Shown here: positions 428 through 35,202 of the stretch, one piece after another
Numbering within the stretch: position 1 is the stretch's first letter
Layout of the letters: each line of letters opens with the position of its first letter
Assembly (NCBI RefSeq): GCF_040218025.1
Contig: NZ_JAVJQD010000025.1
Strand: one strand, 5' to 3'
Length of the DNA: 64,000 nucleotides
Source: Hoeflea sp.
GTDB lineage: Bacteria > Pseudomonadota > Alphaproteobacteria > Rhizobiales > Rhizobiaceae
Notes under the pieces: model-generated
Seen by the model: the letters and a program-made list of their open reading frames with translations, nothing else
Database searches by the model: none
What the model was told of the DNA's origin: nothing
Program-made: the position numbers and the translations under genes

Positions 428-3025
428 ATGAGCGACAGCAAAGACGACAAGACAATCAGTGTTACCGGCAAGAAGACCTTCTCGCTGAAGCGGCCCTCCG
501 TCGAACAGGGGATGGTGCGTCAGGAGATGGGCCGCGGCCGGACCAAGGCGGTGGTGGTGGAAACGCGCAAGCGGCGCATCAACCGTCCGGAAGACGAAAA
601 GCCGGCGCAGCCGATAACCCTCAAGCCGCGCAAGGCCCCTGAGCCCGAGAAGGCTGCGGAAAAGCCCGCACCGGCGCCTGCCGCACCGGCGGCCCCCGCC
701 CGTGGCGGCGTCGTGCTCAATGAACTGTCGGCCAGCGAGGTCGAGGCCCGCCGCCGCGCGCTTCAGGACAGCCGCGTGCGCGACATCGAGGAGCGCAAGC
801 GCGCCGAAGAGGAAGCCGCGCGTCGCGCCGAGGAGGAGGCCCGTCGCAAGGCTGAAGAGGCCGAAGAGGCAAAGCGCCGCGCCGAGGAAGAGGCGCGCCT
901 TGCCAGGGAAGCCGAGGAAAACAAGAAAAGCGAGCCCGAGCCTGAACAGGTTCCGGACGTTGCCGGCCTTGAGGCTGCGGCCCCTCCCTCTCCCGAAGAT
1001 GCCGCTGCACGGGGCCGCCGCCGCGAACCCGAAGCCGACGCGTCGCCGCGCTCCGGCGGTCCGGCCCGTCCCGGCTCCAAGGTTGCCCGGCCCGAAACGC
1101 CCAAGCCGAGCCGTACCAAGGGCGAGGACGATCGCCGTCGCGGGAAGCTGACGCTGACCGCTGCTCTCAATGATGACGGAAATTCCCGCGGTCGCTCGCT
1201 TTCGGCCATGCGCCGCCGTCAGGAGAAAATGCGCCGCTCGATGTCGCAGGAGCCGCGCGAAAAGGTGATGCGTGAAGTCACGCTGCCCGAGACCATTACC
1301 ATTCAGGAACTGTCCCAGCGTATGGCCGAACGGTCGGTCGACGTGATCAAGTATCTGATGAAGGAAGGCCAGATGATGAAGCCCGGCGACGTCATTGACG
1401 CCGACCTGGCCGAAATCATCGCCGGAGAATTCGGACACACGGTCCGGCGCGTTTCGGAGTCCGATGTCGAGCTTGGCATTTTCAACGTCGAGGACGAGGG
1501 CGGCGAGACCGTTCCGCGTCCTCCGGTCGTCACCATCATGGGCCATGTCGACCACGGCAAGACCTCGCTTCTTGACGCCATTCGCGATGCGAACGTGGTC
1601 TCCGGCGAGGCCGGCGGCATCACCCAGCATATCGGCGCCTATCAGGTCGAGAAAAACGGTCAGCTGATCACCTTCATCGACACGCCGGGTCACGCCGCCT
1701 TTACCGCGATGCGCGCACGTGGCGCCCAGGCGACCGACATCGCGATCCTCGTGGTCGCGGCAGACGACGCCGTGATGCCGCAGACGATCGAATCGATCAA
1801 TCACGCCAAGGCGGCCAATGTGCCGATCATTGTCGCCATCAACAAGATGGACAAGCCTTCTGCCGATGCCAACAAGGTGCGCACGGATCTTCTGCAGCAC
1901 GAGGTCTTCGTCGAATCCATGGGTGGTGAAGTGCTGGACGTCGAGGTGTCGGCGCTCAAGCAACTCAATCTCGACAAACTGCTCGACGCGATCCTGCTCC
2001 AGGCCGAACTGCTCGACCTGAAGGCCAATCCGGACCGCACCGCCGAGGGCGTTGTCGTCGAGGCCAAGCTCGATCGCGGCCGCGGTTCGGTCGCCACCGT
2101 GCTGGTCCAGACCGGTACGCTGCATCCCGGCGAAATCCTCGTGGCGGGCGATCAGTGGGGCCGTGTGCGTGCTCTGGTCAACGACCGTGGCGAGCAGGTC
2201 AAGCAAGCGGGTCCTGCCTCTCCGGTGGAGATTCTCGGGCTTCAGGGTACGCCGCAGGCCGGCGACCGCTTCGCAGTCGTCGAGAACGAATCCCGTGCCC
2301 GCGAAATCGCCGAATACCGTCAGCGGCTTGCCCGCGACAAGGCGGCGGCGCGCCAGAGCGGCTCGCGCGGTTCGCTCGAGCAGATGATGACCCAGTTGCA
2401 GGACACCGGCAGCCAGGAATTCCCGCTGCTGGTCAAGGGCGACGTTCAGGGATCGATCGAGGCCATTGCCGGTGCGATCGAGAAGCTCGGCACCGACGAG
2501 GTGCGCGCGCGCATCATCCATTCGGCCGCCGGCGCCATTACCGAATCCGACATCTCGCTCGCGGAAGCTTCCGGTGCGGCGATCATCGGCTTCAATGTCC
2601 GCGCCAACAAGCAGGCCCGCGATGCGGCCGAGCGCGAGGGCGTCGAAATCCGCTACTACAACATCATCTACGATCTCGTGGATGACGTGAAGGCGGCGAT
2701 GTCGGGCATGCTCTCGCCGGAGCGCCGCGAAACCTTCCTCGGCAACGCCGAGATCCTGGAGGTGTTCAACATCACCAAGGTCGGCAAGGTGGCCGGTTGC
2801 CGCGTCACCGAAGGCAAGGTCGAACGTGGCGCGGGCGTCCGCCTGATCCGCGACAGCGTGGTCATTCACGAAGGCAAGCTCAAGACCCTCAAGCGTTTCA
2901 AGGACGAAGTGGCCGAGGTCAACGGCGGCCAGGAATGCGGCATGGCCTTCGAGAACTACGAGGACATCCGCGCAGGCGACGTCATCGAGTGCTTCCGCGT
3001 GGAGCACGTCACACGCACGCTTTGA
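428..3025 (+). CDS. infB: translation initiation factor IF-2
   Basis: ORF 293..3025; ATG 428 chosen ([12 protein letters not shown]). G-domain motifs [14 protein letters not shown] and NKMD are present. The Lys/Glu/Ala/Arg-rich N-terminal region is typical of IF-2. Confidence 0.97.
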
Positions 3026-3114
3026 TCGGAAGTTTGCCCGGCGCGTGAAGTGCCGGGCTGGTTTCCTTTGCCGCCTTCCCGGACAGGCTTGTCCGCAACA
3101 CAGGGTGGATTTCC

Positions 3115-3555
3115 ATGCCCAAACCCACATCCTCCGCCCCGTCGCAGCGCATGCTTCGTGTCGGCGAACAGGTGCGCGCCGCCATCACGCAGGTGCTGCA
3201 GCGCGGCGATGTCCGCGATCCGCTGATCGAGAAAACCGTCATTTCTGTCTCGGAAGTGCGCATGTCGCCCGATCTGAAGATCGCGACGGCCTACGTCACC
3301 CCGCTCGGCCAGACCGATCATGCGGAGACCATCGCGGCGCTGAACAAGCATGCGCGTTATCTCCGTGGCCGGATTTCGCCATTGATCAGGCAGATGAAAT
3401 ACATGCCTGAACTCCGCTTCCGCGATGACACCAGCTTCGACAATTACTCGAAGATCGATGCACTGCTGCGTTCCCCCGAGGTCGCCCGCGATCTCGATGC
3501 TGACGATGAAGACGGCGGCGACCGGCGTCGCGACGACGGCGCGGAGAACGGCTGA
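3115..3555 (+). CDS. rbfA: ribosome-binding factor A
   Basis: 146-aa ORF ([17 protein letters not shown]...[17 protein letters not shown]) in the conserved infB-rbfA-truB order. Confidence 0.9.
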
Positions 3556-28975: not shown

Positions 28976-30550
28976 ATGGCAAGTCTAGGCACCTATCTGC
29001 GCCTTGTGCGCGCGGGTTTCATCATGGTGCGCGAGGGCGTCGTCTCCTCGCTGCCCGCCGATGATCTGCCGGCGCCGGCGCGCTTCGCCCATTCGGTCGC
29101 GGGCCTGCTGGCCAGACGCCGCGCAAAAAGTGCGGAGCGTTCCGACAGGCTCGCCCGCGCCGTCGAGCGCCTTGGCCCCTCCTGGGTCAAGCTCGGCCAG
29201 TTCCTCGCCACCCGGCCGGATGTGGTCGGCGTCGACATCGCCAATGATCTCGCCGGTCTTCAGGACCGGATGACCACCTTCCCCGAAACCGTCGCGCGCC
29301 GGGCGATCGAGGAGTCGCTTGGCCGCGAGGTCCCGGAGCTGTTCTCGCGTTTCGATCCTCCGATCGCCGCCGCCTCCATCGCCCAGGTTCACCCGGCTGA
29401 AATCAGCGAAGGCGAGGGGACACGCAAGGTTGCGGTCAAGGTTGTCCGCCCTGGCGTCAGGCAGCGTTTCCGGCGCGATCTCGAGGCATTCTATCTGGTC
29501 TCCCGGATGCAGGAACGCTTCATCCCGTCCTCGCGCCGACTGCGTCCGGTCGAAATCACCAAGACGCTTGAGCAGACCACGCGTATCGAGATGGATCTCA
29601 GGCTTGAGGCTGCCGCCCTGTCGGAGATGGCCGAAAACACCCGTGGCGATCCGGGTTTCCGCGTGCCCGCTGTCGACTGGGAACGCACCGGCCGCGATGT
29701 CGTCACGATGGAGTGGATCGACGGCACCAAGATGAGCAATGTCGAGGGCCTGCGCGCGGCAGGACATGATCTTCATGCGCTTGCCGACACTCTCATCCAG
29801 TCCTTCCTGCGCCATACCCTGCGCGACGGCTTCTTTCACGCGGACATGCACCAGGGCAATCTCTTCGTCGATTCCAGGGGCATGATCGTCGCCGTCGACA
29901 TGGGCATCGTCAGCCGTCTGCACCGCAAGGAGCGCCGCTTTCTGGCCGAGATCCTCTACGGCTTCATCACCCGCGATTACCGCCGGGTGGCCGATGTGCA
30001 TTTCGAGGCAGGTTATGTGCCTGCCCGGCACGATCCGGCGAGTTTCGCCCAGGCGATCCGCGCCATCGGCGAACCGATCCACGGCCAGCCGGCCGAAACC
30101 ATCTCGATGGCGCGGTTGCTGACGCTGCTGTTCGAGGTCACGGAACTGTTCGACATGGAGACCCGGCCCGAACTGGTCATGCTGCAGAAGACCATGGTCG
30201 TGGTCGAGGGCGTTGCGCGCACGCTCAATCCGAAGTTCAACATGTGGAAGGCGGCCGAGCCGGTGGTGGAGAGCTGGATCCGCGACAATCTCGGCCCCAA
30301 ACGCATCGCCACCGATGTCAAGGCCGGCGCCATGGCCGCGCTCAGGCTTGCGGAACAGTTGCCGGATCTCGCCACGCGCACCGAACGGCTTGCCGCCGAA
30401 GTGGGCGAAATGGCCGAAAACGGCCTGCGGTTCGACGATGTCACCTCCGAGGCCATCGGCAAGGCCGAGGCGCGCCACACACGGTCCGGACGGATCGCGC
30501 TGTGGGTGATTGCGATCGCCCTCGTCGCCATCGCGGTGCGGCTCTACTGA
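28976..30550 (+). CDS. ubiB: UbiB (ABC1 atypical-kinase family) ubiquinone biosynthesis protein
   Basis: GPSWVKLGQFLATRPDVVG...ASIAQVH...VAVKVVRPG...FFHADMHQGNLFV, plus a C-terminal TM helix. Lies 5 nt after ubiE. Confidence 0.93.
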   Translation: MASLGTYLRLVRAGFIMVREGVVSSLPADDLPAPARFAHSVAGLLARRRAKSAERSDRLARAVERLGPSWVKLGQFLATRPDVVGVDIANDLAGLQDRMTTFPETVARRAIEESLGREVPELFSRFDPPIAAASIAQVHPAEISEGEGTRKVAVKVVRPGVRQRFRRDLEAFYLVSRMQERFIPSSRRLRPVEITKTLEQTTRIEMDLRLEAAALSEMAENTRGDPGFRVPAVDWERTGRDVVTMEWIDGTKMSNVEGLRAAGHDLHALADTLIQSFLRHTLRDGFFHADMHQGNLFVDSRGMIVAVDMGIVSRLHRKERRFLAEILYGFITRDYRRVADVHFEAGYVPARHDPASFAQAIRAIGEPIHGQPAETISMARLLTLLFEVTELFDMETRPELVMLQKTMVVVEGVARTLNPKFNMWKAAEPVVESWIRDNLGPKRIATDVKAGAMAALRLAEQLPDLATRTERLAAEVGEMAENGLRFDDVTSEAIGKAEARHTRSGRIALWVIAIALVAIAVRLY

Positions 30551-30764
30551 GGCGCCGGACTTGCCGGTTCAAACGCTGAAACACGGCGTGATTTGCATTT
30601 TTTGCCCGGATCGCGCTAATTTGTGTCGTGCCCCGGCATAAGACCGGGCCAGCATTCGCCGGCGGCGCAGGGCGCCGCCAGGACAAGAAACCCGGCAGCG
30701 GGACGCTTTTTAGCGTCCGGACTTGATGTTTGCGCCGGGACAGTCACAAGCATTGGATAGATAT

Positions 30765-31199
30765 ATGAGCGAGGCCAAATCCGGCGATATCGTGCGGATC
30801 AACTATACCGGAAAACTCACCGACGGCACCCAGTTCGACAGTTCCGAGGGGCGCGAGCCTCTGGAATTCGAAATCGGCTCGGGCCAGATCATCAGCGGTC
30901 TTGACCGCGAGGTGCAGGGCATGAAGGTCGGCGACAAGCAGACCATTACCGTTCCGGCCGAAGAGGCCTATGGCGCGCACGACGCCGCCAAGGTTCAGCA
31001 GGTGCCGCGTTCGGCGCTGCCTGCAGAAGTCGAGCCGCAGGAAGGCATGCAGTTGCAGGCCCGCACCCCGCAGGGCCCCGTCGCGCTGATCGTCACTTCG
31101 GTGGGCGAGCAGGAAGTCACTGTCGACGCGAACCACCCGCTGGCGGGCAAGGACCTCGTGTTCGACATCGAGATGGTCGACATCGTCAAGGCGGCCTGA
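30765..31199 (+). CDS. FKBP-type peptidyl-prolyl isomerase (SlyD-like)
   Basis: DIVRINYTGKLTDGTQFDSSEGREPLEFEIGSGQIISGLD...HPLAGKDLVFDIEMVDI. Confidence 0.88.
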   Translation: MSEAKSGDIVRINYTGKLTDGTQFDSSEGREPLEFEIGSGQIISGLDREVQGMKVGDKQTITVPAEEAYGAHDAAKVQQVPRSALPAEVEPQEGMQLQARTPQGPVALIVTSVGEQEVTVDANHPLAGKDLVFDIEMVDIVKAA

Positions 31200-31216
31200 G
31201 CGCCGGACTGAAACAG

Positions 31217-31246
31217 GGCGATCCCGGATAAACGCCCGGGATCGCC
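31217..31246 (+). terminator. hairpin downstream of the FKBP gene
   Basis: 11-bp perfect stem GGCGATCCCGG / CCGGGATCGCC with an 8-nt loop. No clear U-tract. Confidence 0.45.
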
Positions 31247-31469
31247 GCTGCGCTTGAAGAAGCGGAATGGCGGATGCTCGCAACCGGGCGCCTGTCGGTT
31301 CCATTTCGCGCCGATTGTCGACCGCCGCATCAGGATAGCCGGTGCGGCGGAAGCGCTGCCGCGTTGCCGTCATGGCAGAAAACTGACCATTCGGAGTGTC
31401 CCTCGTGGCGCTCCGGCCAGGCAACTTGTCCTTCGGAACGCCTCTCTGCAAAAGCCTGACCGGTTCGCT

Positions 31470-31500
31470 TTGACTGCAATGCATGCAATGCCTACATTGC
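31470..31500 (+). promoter_or_regulatory. candidate sigma70-type promoter with GCAATG repeats upstream of RHH-coaBC
   Basis: TTGACT (31470-31475), a 17-nt spacer, then TACATT (31493-31498). The spacer contains GCAATGcatGCAATG, followed by the inverted CATTGC. The GGGGGAG SD lies 7 nt before ATG 31540. Confidence 0.5.
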
Positions 31501-31539
31501 GGCGATCACAGTCGGCGTTGACGCCGGGGGAGACGTCGC

Positions 31540-32952
31540 ATGGCAACCTTGACCATCCGAAATCTTGATGAATCGGCCAAGCAGGCCTTGCGCGAGCGCG
31601 CCGCGAGGAACGGCCGTTCCATGGAAGAGGAGATGCGCTCGATCCTCACCGGTCTGGAAGGCATCGCTGAGGTCCAGGCCCCGACTCAGGCCGCGGTCTC
31701 AACTAAAGTGCCGCCAGTAACAGCCCCGAGCGCCGTGGAGCGCCAGAGTCTGTCAGGCAAACGCATCCTGCTGATCGTTTCGGGCGGCATCGCCGCCTAC
31801 AAGTCGCTCGATCTCATCCGCCGACTGCGTGAGCGCGGCGCCCATGTCCGGCCCGTCATGACCGCCGGCGCGCAGGAGTTCGTCACGCCGCTCACGGTCG
31901 GTGCGCTTGCCGCCGATCATGTCTACACCGATCTGTTTTCCCGCGAGGACGAGCAGGATGTCGGCCACATAAGGCTGGCGCGCGACTGCGATCTCGTCTG
32001 CGTCGCGCCCGCCACCGCCAATCTGATGGCGCGGCTTGCGAACGGCCTCGCCGACGACCTGGCCTCCACCGTGCTTCTTGCCACCAACCGTCCGGTGCTG
32101 ATGGCGCCCGCCATGAACCCGGCGATGTGGTCCCATCCCGCAACCCGCCGCAACGTCGAAACGCTCCGGCGCGACGGCCTGGGCTTCGTCGGCCCGGGCA
32201 GGGGCGAGATGGCGGAATCGGGAGAGGCGGGCGTCGGCCGCATGTCCGAGCCGCTCGCCATCGTCGCCGCCATCGAGGCGCTGGTCGACGATACTCCAAA
32301 GCCGCTTGCGGGCCGGCGCGCCATCGTCACCTCCGGCCCCACGCATGAGCCGATAGACCCGGTGCGCTACATCGCCAACCGTTCGTCGGGCAAGCAGGGC
32401 CACGCCATTGCCGCCCATCTCGCCCGGCTCGGCGCTGATGTCACGTTGGTCTCGGGTCCCGTCGCCATCCCCGATCCGGCCGGAGTCAACGTCGTCCGCG
32501 TCGAGAGCGCGCGAGAGATGCTCGACGCGGTCACGGGCGCGCTGCCCGCCGACATCGGCGTTTTCGTCGCCGCCGTGGCCGACTGGCGCGTGGCGTCCTC
32601 GGCGGACAACAAGATCAAGAAGAAGGAAGGCCAGGGCCCCGCGCCGCTCGAACTCACCGAAAACCCCGATATCCTCCGCACCATCGGCCATCACGACAAC
32701 CGGCCGAAGCTTGTGGTCGGCTTCGCCGCCGAAACCGCCGACGTGATTTCCAACGCTGAAGCCAAGCTTGCCCGCAAGGGCGCCGATTTCATCGTCGCCA
32801 ACGACGTCTCCCCCGAAACCGGCATCATGGGCGGCGACCGCAACCGCGTCCGCATCGTCTCCAACGACGGCGTCGAGGACTGGCCGGACCTGAGCAAGGA
32901 CGAAGTGGCGGAAAGGCTTGCGGCAAGGATCGCGGAGCGTTTCGATCAGTAG
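31540..32952 (+). CDS. coaBC: phosphopantothenoylcysteine decarboxylase / phosphopantothenate-cysteine ligase with N-terminal FitA-like RHH extension
   Basis: Residues from about 71 are canonical CoaBC (GKRILLIVSGGIAAYKS...PAMN..MW...; C-terminal CoaB half KKKEG...FAAET). Residues 1-40 (MATLTIRNLDESAKQALRERAARNGRSMEEEMRSILTGL) match the FitA/VapB-type ribbon-helix-helix signature. No stop codon separates the two parts. Confidence 0.9.
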   Translation: MATLTIRNLDESAKQALRERAARNGRSMEEEMRSILTGLEGIAEVQAPTQAAVSTKVPPVTAPSAVERQSLSGKRILLIVSGGIAAYKSLDLIRRLRERGAHVRPVMTAGAQEFVTPLTVGALAADHVYTDLFSREDEQDVGHIRLARDCDLVCVAPATANLMARLANGLADDLASTVLLATNRPVLMAPAMNPAMWSHPATRRNVETLRRDGLGFVGPGRGEMAESGEAGVGRMSEPLAIVAAIEALVDDTPKPLAGRRAIVTSGPTHEPIDPVRYIANRSSGKQGHAIAAHLARLGADVTLVSGPVAIPDPAGVNVVRVESAREMLDAVTGALPADIGVFVAAVADWRVASSADNKIKKKEGQGPAPLELTENPDILRTIGHHDNRPKLVVGFAAETADVISNAEAKLARKGADFIVANDVSPETGIMGGDRNRVRIVSNDGVEDWPDLSKDEVAERLAARIAERFDQ

Positions 32953-33024
32953 ATAGGTCAAAGACTGGAACAGAACCAACCGCAACCAAGCCGGCGCGCG
33001 GTGTCGGCGGGTTCGTCGATACAA

Positions 33025-33627
33025 TTAGGTTTCTGTGAACTCGAAAACGGAAAGCGCCATGGCGAGCACTTCCGTCGGATCCTCTCCGCGCGCACGCTGA
33101 TCCAGGGCCAGGCCGATTTGCGCATGCAGGTAGTGCGCGGCCAGTTCCACCGGAATGTTCCCGGCCCACTCCCCGTTTGCCTTGCCTTCAGCCAGCACCG
33201 TTGCAAAGGCATCGCGGCTCATGCTCTCCAGATGCGCGATCAGTGTCTGGGTCTTTTCGCCCATCTGGCTTTTCTCACTCCGCATCTTGACGAAGAGGCA
33301 CCCCTTTTGATGCTGCGCGTCCTGGGCCGCAAGATGGGCTACGCGCTTGATTATGTTCGGAAAACGGTCCTTGCTGTGAAGAATTTCCAGCATCTTCACC
33401 ATGACAAACTGCCCGTAGTGTTCAAGCGCCGCGCAGGTCAGTCCATCTTCACTTCCGAACGCGTTGTAGACTGACGGCTTGGATACAACGGCCCGCTGAC
33501 AGATGGAGTTGAGCGAAACCGCGGTCGGTCCATCTTCCCAATAAGCGTTCATGGCCACATCGAGAACGTCTTCCTTGCTCATTTTCGGCGGGCGGCCCCG
33601 GCCGGGTTTGGATGGTGCTTCAGGCAT
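33025..33627 (-). CDS. TetR-family transcriptional regulator
   Basis: N-terminal HTH region SKEDVLDVAMNAYWEDGPTAVSLNSICQRAVVSKPSVYNAFGSEDGL. Confidence 0.88.
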   Translation of the reverse strand: MPEAPSKPGRGRPPKMSKEDVLDVAMNAYWEDGPTAVSLNSICQRAVVSKPSVYNAFGSEDGLTCAALEHYGQFVMVKMLEILHSKDRFPNIIKRVAHLAAQDAQHQKGCLFVKMRSEKSQMGEKTQTLIAHLESMSRDAFATVLAEGKANGEWAGNIPVELAAHYLHAQIGLALDQRARGEDPTEVLAMALSVFEFTET

Positions 33628-33631
33628 TAAT

Positions 33632-33689
33632 GTACCATATGGTATTTAATTGTTGACAGGCTGATGACTTTATTTGTACCAATCGGTAC
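33632..33689. promoter_or_regulatory. two TACC-N4-GGTA inverted repeats (candidate TetR operators) flanking a TTGACA
   Basis: TACCATATGGTA (33633-33644, perfect palindrome) and GTACCaatcGGTAC (33676-33689), with TTGACA at 33653-33658, in the AT-rich divergent region. Confidence 0.5.
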
Positions 33690-33888
33690 GTAAATAAGCA
33701 ATCAGGAGCTTCCGGCGATGAACGCCACGAGCAGAACGGCAATGATTCCGTCTCGCTTTGGCACAGTCATATCAAGGCTCAGCTCCAGAAGTCTGCCTGG
33801 GTCGGTTGTCGTTGTGGCGATCGTACCGGGTGAAACGAGAACCCCTGCGCCTGGATGCGTGGGTCATACCCCAAAAAGGATAGATCCG

Positions 33889-34311
33889 ATGAGAAAGCTT
33901 CTTCTTGCCACCGCCGCGATTCTCGCCCTTGCCACCGGCGCCTTTGCGGATGACGCGGGCCACGCTTCGCCCCATGTGGCACTGGGCGACGTCGAATGGT
34001 TCGATGCTCCGATCCCCGGTGTACAGCTTGCCCTTGCGTGGGGCGAAGATGCGACGGGAGCCGCATGGCTGTTCAAGATCGACCCCGGCGTGGAACTGCC
34101 CATGCACATTCACACCCATGATTACTGGGGTCTGACCATTCAGGGCAACTGGGTTCATGTACACGAGGACGGCTCGGAGACTCCGACAGGACCCGGCGAC
34201 TACTCCTTGGTGCGTGGTGGTGATGTTCACGCCGACAAATGCGATGACGCTGCCCCTTGCATCGGCCTGCTTGCTTTCTCCGGCCCCCGGGATGTCGCGC
34301 TTGCGCAATAG
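33889..34311 (+). CDS. exported cupin-domain protein
   Basis: Start chosen at MRKLLLATAAILALATGAFA (signal peptide). Cupin His cluster PMHIHTHDYWGLTIQG...GDVH. An in-frame upstream ATG at 33718 would add 57 aa, so the start is uncertain. Confidence 0.65.
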   Translation: MRKLLLATAAILALATGAFADDAGHASPHVALGDVEWFDAPIPGVQLALAWGEDATGAAWLFKIDPGVELPMHIHTHDYWGLTIQGNWVHVHEDGSETPTGPGDYSLVRGGDVHADKCDDAAPCIGLLAFSGPRDVALAQ

Positions 34312-34392
34312 GTGCCGCCAAGCTTAATCCGAATAGAACGCCCGCCGCCTGAATGCCGGCGGGCGTCCCATCTTGGCTCGACGCGCCGGTGT

Positions 34393-35202
34393 TTATGCCA
34401 CCTCGGCTACCTTCATCGCTTCCACCTGCATAGGCTCAAACCGCATGGAACGCATGCCCGAGGACGTCAGTGTCACGAAGCTGCCGGCGGGGATTTCGTG
34501 CCATTTGGTGTCGGGGTCGTGGAACGGTTCGGAGACCAGGCAGTGCCCGCCATTGCCGCACATCGGCGCCGAATAGAGCGTCGGGGCGTAGGCGTCGGTG
34601 GCGTAGCGGATGGCATGGAGCGTCTCGCCGTCGCTGAAGGCCGAGGTGAACCTGACGAGTGGGCTCAGGCCTGCACGTCCGGCCTCTGCGAGCGTGAAGC
34701 GGATTGTCTCGGCGAAGGCCGCGGCCGGATCGGTCTCGAGGCCGAATTCCAGCGCCAGCAGGAACAGAAGCTCCGAATCCGTCGTGCCGTGCCGGGCGCT
34801 GTAGAGCGGATCGGACAGGGCGGCCTCCATCGGCCGGCGAATCCGCTCGAAGCCGGCGATCTGCCCGTTGTGCATGAAGGACCAGCGTCCGTGAACGAAG
34901 GGATGGCAATTGTCCCGGCTCGTCGCTCCGCCGGTCGAGGCGCGCACATGGGCGAGAAACAGCGGCGAACGGATCTGCCGCGCCAGCGATCTCAAATTGC
35001 AGTCCGACCAGGCGGGCAGCACGTCGCGGTAAAGCCCTGGTTCCGTGTGTTCGCCATACCAGGCGATGCCGAAGCCGTCGCCATTGGTGGCGGTCTTGGC
35101 CTGTGTGGCCTGCTGGGACTGCTCGATCAGGGAATGTCCCGGCGCCGAAACGAGCTGTTCGAGCGGGATCGGCGTTCCTCGGTAGGCGGCCCAGCGGCAC
35201 AT
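34393..35202 (-). CDS. class II (Ntn) glutamine amidotransferase, EgtC/YafJ-like
   Basis: Starts MC (Cys2 nucleophile): MCRWAAYRG...NGDGFGIAWY...HVRASTGG...NCHPF. Confidence 0.85.
   Translation of the reverse strand: MCRWAAYRGTPIPLEQLVSAPGHSLIEQSQQATQAKTATNGDGFGIAWYGEHTEPGLYRDVLPAWSDCNLRSLARQIRSPLFLAHVRASTGGATSRDNCHPFVHGRWSFMHNGQIAGFERIRRPMEAALSDPLYSARHGTTDSELLFLLALEFGLETDPAAAFAETIRFTLAEAGRAGLSPLVRFTSAFSDGETLHAIRYATDAYAPTLYSAPMCGNGGHCLVSEPFHDPDTKWHEIPAGSFVTLTSSGMRSMRFEPMQVEAMKVAEVA

Follow-up and report, generated by a model that had tools for sequence, protein, structure and literature searches.

A FitA-like ribbon-helix-helix domain fused in frame to the coenzyme A biosynthesis enzyme CoaBC of Hoeflea sp., with a conserved candidate operator in front of its gene

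The bifunctional enzyme CoaBC is an essential drug target in the biosynthesis of coenzyme A (CoA). In a stretch of 64,000 nucleotides (nt) from Hoeflea sp. (contig NZ_JAVJQD010000025.1), referred to in the following as the window, the coaBC gene starts with about 40 codons that resemble the DNA-binding part of an antitoxin, and this raises the question why a cofactor-biosynthetic enzyme should carry such a domain. The original prediction, made from the window alone, suggested a domesticated antitoxin domain of the ribbon-helix-helix (RHH) type that could allow the enzyme to autoregulate. Comparison with related genomes and metagenomes indicates that the domesticated RHH probably makes CoaBC a repressor of its own gene, since the RHH is under selection and belongs to a family binding its own operators, the cognate operator is kept wherever the RHH is kept, and this operator overlaps the predicted promoter.

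The RHH and CoaBC parts are encoded in one frame without an intervening stop codon (Table 1), and the 470-residue protein with its Ala/Pro/Val-rich linker was found as originally described. Residues 2–37 match the Pfam family PF22513 (FitA-like_RHH) with 66.0 bits (cutoff 27, E 2.9e-18) over profile positions 1–36 of 39, and residues 1–70 scanned alone reach 71 bits, which bears out the proposed FitA/VapB-type RHH at the N-terminus. A search of the Protein Data Bank (PDB) sequences with residues 1–70 returned as sole matches the FitA entries 2BSQ and 2H1O from Neisseria gonorrhoeae, the alignment covering the strand and the two helices. Residues 72–463 match the NCBIfam equivalog TIGR00521 for bifunctional CoaBC (409.1 bits versus a cutoff of 219.7; profile positions 2–390 of 392). 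With this full-length match and both CoaC and CoaB domains the protein is like canonical CoaBC (Dfp of Escherichia coli; CoaBC of Mycobacterium smegmatis, PDB 6TGV), which, however, starts with M-T/A-L-S-G-K-R-I-L-L and has no N-terminal extension. By profile assignment, the module thus belongs to the FitA-like RHH domain family, and the enzyme to CoaBC. In an AlphaFold2 (AF2) model of residues 1–250, built as a monomer from an alignment of 100 sequences, residues 1–10 are extended and residues 11–24 and 28–42 helical, with predicted local distance difference test (pLDDT) values of 81–96, corresponding to strand-helix-helix. The linker (residues 43–70; pLDDT 47–72) has no secondary structure, and the CoaC domain is modelled as a confident fold (pLDDT >90).

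The fusion is not confined to the window. Among 81 coaBC loci, i.e. the window and 80 loci from Hyphomicrobiales sampled with one genome per species (designated by L numbers), 35 carry the RHH fused in frame, 42 have a short coaBC without RHH, and four have a separate RHH gene. Fusions occur in Hoeflea, Lentilitoribacter, Zhengella, Nitratireductor, Mesorhizobium and Phyllobacterium as well as in Ochrobactrum/Brucella, Bartonella, Bradyrhizobium, Rhodopseudomonas, Afipia and Xanthobacteraceae, so that the extension is conserved in several families; the orthologue on a Hoeflea chromosome (L001) is 91 % identical to the window protein. In a tree of the CoaBC core the fusion state tracks taxonomy, and the Rhizobium/Agrobacterium/Sinorhizobium clade, Stappiaceae and Aurantimonadaceae are without the fusion. 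Many further sequences combining PF22513 with PF02441 (and PF04127) are held in the protein database, where RHH-CoaBC proteins are labelled merely as CoaBC. Neither a separating stop nor a conserved internal start was detected at any fusion locus.

Ratios of nonsynonymous to synonymous substitution rates (dN/dS) were determined according to Nei-Gojobori for nine close pairs. They amount to 0.02–0.12 for the RHH (undefined in one pair, the synonymous sites of which are saturated), where synonymous changes are many, to 0.07–0.24 for CoaBC and to 0.2–1.3 for the linker. The low values imply that the RHH is translated and constrained as strongly as the enzyme. The linker varies in sequence between genera and in length from about 20 to 60 residues; its reading frame is never broken. 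Across 100 sequences T5, R7, K14, L17, R18, A22, G25, S27, E29 and R33 are nearly invariant, the strand residues T5 and R7 representing the putative DNA-reading residues. All fusions have their start codon at M-A-(S/T)-(I/L)-T-(I/V)-R, and GGAG-type sequences stand before the RHH start at other fusion loci too, like the GGGGGAG Shine-Dalgarno (SD) sequence noted earlier in the window. The canonical start MTLSGKR is replaced in the fusions by QS, GS or GT followed by LSGKR, and due to these non-start codons no short CoaBC should arise from a conserved internal start. Orthologue conservation and dN/dS together confirm, as far as comparative evidence goes, that the fusion is real, and led us to reject an artefact, a frameshift or an internal start.

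In front of the window gene, the original prediction had noted operator-like GCAATG repeats. The repeats are real and part of a conserved operator, but 8-bp half-sites of the TGATTGCA type at 9-bp spacing describe this operator better than hexamers. Three such half-sites constitute a candidate operator overlapping both promoter hexamers (−35 and −10) together with their spacer. The region contains a direct repeat at 9-bp phase (TGCAATGCA at 31475–31483, TGCAATGCC at 31484–31492) as well as an inverted repeat of 12-nt arms (GCAATGCATGCA, 31476–31487; TGCCTACATTGC, 31489–31500) that are 83 % complementary around a dyad at 31488. The proposed promoter, TTGACT-N17-TACATT (31470..31498), is present and is the sole sigma-70-like site in 30600–33700, but weak by itself, as 0.6 such sites are expected from shuffling. 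TGATTGCANTGCAATCA has a single match in the window, which is the candidate operator; the 17-mer consensus has one match at ≤3 mismatches versus 0.23 expected, a result equalled by 20 of 100 shuffles. No second operator was found in the 64 kb. Judged from the window alone, promoter and repeats are therefore not statistically compelling, and their significance derives from conservation in other genomes. At three Hoeflea loci with unalignable flanks, TTTGACTGCAATG..TGCAATGC.TACATTG is nonetheless nearly invariant, and the window form TGACTGCAa/TGCATGCAa/TGCCTACA (31471–31496) is in register with TGATTGCAt/TGATTGCAa/TGCAATCA of the fusion loci L055, L057 and L063.

From Mesorhizobium to Bradyrhizobium, the upstream regions of fusion genes have in common TGATTGCA-N-TGCAATCA or TGATAGCA-N-TGCTATCA, i.e. 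half-sites of the family TGAT(T/A)GCA, with TGATTGCAtTGATTGCAaTGCAATCA as consensus and an operator length of 26–30 bp. The 8-mer TGATTGCA/TGCAATCA was detected within 150 nt upstream at 30 of 33 fusion loci versus none of 46 fusion-less ones, and the 17-mer palindrome (≤4 mismatches of 16) at 31 of 33 versus, again, none of 46; elsewhere in the 80 coaBC loci no further site exists at ≤2 mismatches. The half-sites are centred 20–60 nt upstream of the start codon and arranged at 9-bp phase, forming either triplets (direct plus inverted) or pairs of palindromes 22–23 bp apart, in a sample including loci ascertained via the palindrome itself. A reverse test, unbiased as to genes, was based on metagenomes scanned for the perfect palindrome, which yielded 120 loci. 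An RHH-CoaBC start lies within 56 nt of the palindrome at 49 of them, a FitA-like RHH gene for 80–92 residues, mostly sharing 4 nt with a PIN toxin gene, adjoins it at 27, and 16 more loci have an RHH found by hidden Markov model, amounting to a FitA-like RHH gene next to the palindrome at at least 92 of 120 loci. The 28 palindromes without RHH are located on contigs of low GC content, within open reading frames or at the ends of contigs, and no neighbouring gene recurs among them. The palindrome thus appears to serve a single FitA-like RHH subfamily as cognate operator, in true antitoxins and CoaBC fusions alike.

Two groups of fusion loci show peculiarities of the operator. Mesorhizobium fusions (L024, L026, L032–L039) possess one more half-site, (G)TGCAATCA, some 10 nt ahead of the ATG at 3001 and abutting this start codon (...GAGTGCAATCAC ATG); it occupies the SD position and may hint at a repressor covering the ribosome-binding region or at a very short leader. 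In Bartonella sp. (L059:2890–3000) the operator has drifted to AT-rich TGAAATCATTGAAATCA with the fusion retained, which could represent a natural test of operator/RHH co-evolution in a reduced genome.

The same half-site family extends to a characterized antitoxin. The presumed DNA target of FitA of N. gonorrhoeae is an inverted repeat composed of TGCTATCA half-sites. Upstream of fitA in the fetched locus, ATTGCTATCA-TTTTTTTATTT-TGATAGCAT, corresponding to TGCTATCA-N11-TGATAGCA, is located 30–57 nt before the ATG, and its 8-mer recurs unchanged as the half-site variant of Mesorhizobium and Bradyrhizobium fusion operators, one base off the majority form TGATTGCA. In the FitAB crystal four FitA-FitB heterodimers are bound to a 36-bp piece of the fitA regulatory region; FitA contacts the DNA via its RHH, and FitB makes no DNA contact but tethers the FitA dimers, several of which are thereby held together by their partner (PMC3920265). 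FitAB and the window system have in common an N-terminal RHH of PF22513 with the strand motif IRNL, an operator in the own promoter region and the 8-mer half-site family. They differ in that the half-sites of fitA are separated by 11 nt, whereas those of the fusions are adjacent at 9-bp phase and also differently oriented, and in that the window has neither a toxin-binding C-terminal tail nor a PIN gene, its RHH being covalently joined to an essential enzyme. In the N. gonorrhoeae genome used here (GCA_900454075.1, L201:1501–1665), fitA is called as 54 residues only, as a 1-nt difference after codons R-L-I puts the sequence out of frame with the crystallised FitA; insertion sequence (rve) genes are located directly upstream, and a pseudogene or a sequencing error may be involved.

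The origin of the fusion is indicated by relatives in which the same slot is occupied by a TA (toxin-antitoxin) module. In a library of 1.8 billion proteins, the nearest relatives of the RHH (65–85 % identity) are almost all 50–115 residues long, the size of free antitoxins. An RHH antitoxin, a PIN toxin and a short coaBC with canonical start, encoded as separate genes, are present in Hoeflea (L002), Pseudaminobacter (L037) and Mesorhizobium (L047, L048), the PIN domain (PF01850) having been detected in L002, L037 and L047 and the toxin of L048 being deduced from locus length; a metagenome locus (L120) has the same arrangement. These fitAB-like modules share the operator family of the fusions, and L037, L047 and L048 are placed after ubiB, as is the window locus. 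The closest counterpart is Hoeflea L002, which has the same −35/operator/−10 block as the window and in which the stop codon of PIN and the ATG of coaBC overlap. Its RHH is 78 % identical to that of the window over 36 residues; the likeness ends at residue 36 and resumes at the coaBC start. Hence the two differ in the middle only, about 100 nt of linker standing against about 600 nt of antitoxin tail and PIN gene, and the shared promoter/operator, RHH and coaBC start suggest that TA form and fusion are alleles of one locus. The fusion therefore appears to share ancestry with a fitAB-like RHH-PIN module that in some relatives lies directly upstream of a short coaBC and is operonic with it, and the proposed domestication of an antitoxin gains direct support from the four genomes named above. 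Starting from the TA form, one deletion that keeps the frame would suffice to yield the fusion. The C-terminal toxin-neutralising region of the antitoxin is absent in the window, a variable disordered linker being found instead, and in agreement with the original prediction no PIN or other toxin gene was found near coaBC (29000–35000). Since toxin gene and toxin-binding tail are both absent, the window protein is, by its gene context and domain content, not a type II antitoxin.

Three further features of TA-type loci and linkers may be mentioned. In Pseudaminobacter soli (L037:3001–3892) two tandem FitA-like RHH genes, an orphan of 67 residues (3001–3204) and a second one ending at 3487, precede PIN and short coaBC, possibly reflecting an intermediate state or a duplicated antitoxin. 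The window sequence GCGCCA-GAGTC (31740–31750) corresponds to GCGCCATGACC of L002 (3693–3703), the junction at which the PIN stop TGA overlaps the coaBC ATG; loss of one T there would abolish stop and start alike, although the upstream homology of 6 nt only may be coincidence. The linkers of Mesorhizobium L035 and L036 contain at residues ~45–62 a conserved, helical-looking stretch, GRIDQIEQTLRELAV, which aligns weakly with the middle of the L048 Mesorhizobium antitoxin (RLEVLRELAV), LRELAV being in common; an antitoxin remnant is conceivable, but the likeness is suggestive only.

With respect to mechanism, a structural study (PMC7794376) demonstrated that mycobacterial CoaBC forms a dodecamer whose core is built from the N-terminal CoaC domain, and by homology the same oligomer, as well as the same activity, is to be expected for the window protein. 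RHH modules of neighbouring subunits would then dimerise and insert their two-stranded β-ribbons into adjacent half-sites, thereby blocking RNA polymerase, such that the amount of CoaBC protein would set the rate of coaBC transcription in a negative autoregulation. The oligomeric enzyme core could assume the role of the PIN toxin (FitB) by bridging RHH dimers and so conferring avid, cooperative binding.

Several observations weigh against autorepression by a domesticated antitoxin. The window operator is degenerate, with 3 of 16 positions mismatching the consensus and a weak third half-site, and the promoter call agrees with 9 of 12 consensus positions, which is not significant by itself. Fusion loci L027 and L044 lack the 17-mer at ≤4 mismatches, though TGATTGCA half-sites are kept, and a dimeric β-ribbon cannot be displayed by an AF2 monomer, where the strand has no pairing partner. 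Concerning descent, the DNA of the window linker shares with the antitoxin tail/PIN gene of L002 merely 6 nt (GCGCCA) before the coaBC start, and TA-state loci are nested inside fusion clades in the CoaBC tree. Due to this nesting, the fusion need not have arisen from the TA form by one simple deletion; replacement of alleles or fusion on more than one occasion may be involved instead.

Among other explanations, one that extends autorepression by the fused RHH rather than replacing it regards CoaBC as a metabolite-responsive trigger enzyme, in which occupancy of the CoaB or CoaC site (by 4′-phosphopantothenate, cytidine triphosphate (CTP), cysteine or CoA/acyl-CoA) alters the availability of the RHH or the geometry of the oligomer, so that transcription would follow CoA demand as it follows proline/redox state with PutA and biotinyl-AMP with BirA. 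It would explain why the covalent link is kept across families despite nearly free evolution of the linker, when a free RHH gene would suffice for simple repression, and it is consistent with the allosteric inhibition of M. tuberculosis CoaBC by CoA thioesters (PMC7794376) and with the precedent of PutA (PMC5293562). As simple dosage autoregulation accounts for all data, no sequence feature pointing to ligand coupling was found, and a disordered, variable linker argues against a rigid allosteric relay, such sensing is regarded as possible but rather doubtful. Similarly speculative, and in our opinion unlikely, is the full scenario of a dodecamer with up to six antitoxin-derived RHH dimers reading its own operator under the influence of substrate, CTP and CoA/acyl-CoA, derived from a TA module that inserted before an essential gene, captured its regulation and passed the tethering role to the enzyme core.

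Alternatively, the RHH could be cleaved off after translation, e.g. by Lon or Clp, to give a free small repressor and CoaBC of normal length, with the fusion ensuring 1:1 synthesis. The disordered, fast-evolving linker would suit this, as would the general notion that antitoxins of this class are typically protease substrates (reviewed in PMC3920265), but the linker alignment shows no conserved cleavage motif and a free RHH of 40–70 residues would lose the avidity provided by toxin or enzyme core, rendering cleavage improbable. Even less credence is given to a module still serving as antitoxin for a PIN encoded elsewhere, or tying the enzyme to other chromosomal sites or governing a wider regulon, so that autoregulation would be a by-product: the proteins most closely related to it are genuine antitoxins (50–115 residues) and TA alleles occupy the same locus, but the C-terminal toxin-binding part is missing, no PIN is encoded in the neighbourhood, and a wider regulon was dismissed because neither the window nor the remaining 80 loci hold a second operator and the RHH-less metagenomic palindromes have no recurrent gene. 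A non-functional relic or annotation artefact, the upstream 65–70 codons being a decaying antitoxin remnant or untranslated leader, is hardly credible at all. The in-frame GTG at 31735, correctly identified beforehand as lacking an SD, would give an enzyme of canonical length; this start was rejected for want of an SD, because orthologues have no conserved internal start while theirs is always M-A-S/T with an SD, and because the RHH codons upstream of it are under purifying selection (dN/dS 0.02–0.12 with many synonymous changes), the fusion being kept in frame at 35 genomic and 49 metagenomic loci. Autorepression is hence retained as the favoured explanation.

An enzyme repressing its own gene through a fused RHH is not without precedent, although the original prediction knew of none: trifunctional PutA combines an N-terminal RHH with proline dehydrogenase and pyrroline-5-carboxylate dehydrogenase and is an autogenous transcriptional repressor (PMC5293562). 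It represents the closest precedent in logic, a bifunctional flavoenzyme acting as repressor of its own gene by way of an N-terminal RHH, and RHH-CoaBC shares with it the covalent fusion of RHH and enzyme and, apparently, an RHH operator in the own promoter. The enzymes are unrelated, PutA being catabolic and CoaBC biosynthetic, and Pfam assigns to the window protein FitA-like RHH and CoaC/CoaB domains only, without any PutA-related match. The switch of PutA consists in proline/redox-driven membrane binding, and we know of no toxin-antitoxin ancestry of this protein. BirA and NadR are cofactor-biosynthetic enzymes which repress genes of their own pathways via N-terminal DNA-binding domains; these are of the (winged) helix-turn-helix type, as opposed to the RHH of RHH-CoaBC, and for BirA ligand-dependent dimerisation is established. 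To our knowledge, no enzyme-repressor of the BirA/NadR kind has been described for the CoA pathway.

No information existed on how CoaBC is regulated prior to the finding of its inhibition by CoA thioesters, according to the structural study of 2021 (PMC7794376), and transcriptional control of bacterial CoA biosynthesis is essentially undescribed. Among 8 million full texts no literature linking CoaBC to an RHH or antitoxin fusion was found; as far as the searched literature shows, an antitoxin RHH together with its operator on CoaBC is thus undescribed, though not a new principle. The fusion would offer a concrete and easily testable cis/trans pair (RHH plus 26–30-bp operator) at an essential, drug-target enzyme in a large group that comprises species of the Brucella/Ochrobactrum group, Bartonella as well as Mesorhizobium and Bradyrhizobium, which are important in agriculture. 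It also appears to be an unusually clear case of TA domestication, with DNA-binding domain and operator kept and the toxin gone, and the coexistence of TA and fused forms at one locus in sister species should render the evolutionary path reconstructable. An oligomeric enzyme may, as suggested by this case, replace a toxin as the bridge that gives RHH dimers DNA avidity, and ligand sensing by CoaBC would, if true, make it the first bacterial sensor of the CoA pathway that acts on transcription. Next to CoA metabolism, interest arises for the field of toxin-antitoxin evolution.

Table 1 Features of the RHH-coaBC locus (positions refer to the window)
Feature	Position	Strand	Remarks
−35-like hexamer TTGACT	31470..31475	+	invariant across three Hoeflea loci
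Candidate operator, three 9-bp-phased half-sites	31471..31500	strand-neutral	TGACTGCA (31471–78), TGCATGCA (31480–87), inverted TGCCTACA (31489–96)
−10-like hexamer TACATT	31493..31498	+	17-nt spacer from −35; invariant across three Hoeflea loci
SD-like GGGGGAG	31526..31532	+	7 nt upstream of ATG 31540
RHH-linker-CoaBC gene	31540..32952	+	470 codons + stop; ATG start
FitA-like RHH module	31540..31665	+	residues 1–42; strand ~2–9, helices 11–24 and 28–42
Flexible Ala/Pro/Val-rich linker	31666..31749	+	residues 43–70; ~30 residues
In-frame GTG, codon 66	31735..31737	+	start candidate, rejected; no purine-rich SD upstream
CoaC domain (phosphopantothenoylcysteine decarboxylase, flavoprotein)	31759..32274	+	residues 74–245; PF02441, E 7.5e-34
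CoaB domain (phosphopantothenate-cysteine ligase, DFP)	32305..32856	+	residues 256–439; PF04127, E 2.5e-69
Terminator-like hairpin	33001..33022	+	3′ of coaBC stop; convergent TetR gene next

Neighbouring genes in the window code for UbiB (ABC1 kinase), an FKBP isomerase, a TetR regulator (minus strand), a cupin and a GATase (amidotransferase). Due to the terminator-like hairpin and the convergent TetR gene downstream, the RHH-coaBC gene looks monocistronic. A scan of 30500–33700, leader included, against Rfam at E ≤1 matched no family, and an RNA leader or riboswitch in 31200–31540 was rejected on this basis. A hairpin with an 11-bp stem and without T-run (GGCGATCCCGG/CCGGGATCGCC, 31217–31246) is located 3′ of the FKBP stop. 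The FKBP-type isomerase gene itself (30723–31199) is inserted between ubiB and RHH-coaBC; in most relatives the C-terminus of UbiB is encoded directly before the operator region.

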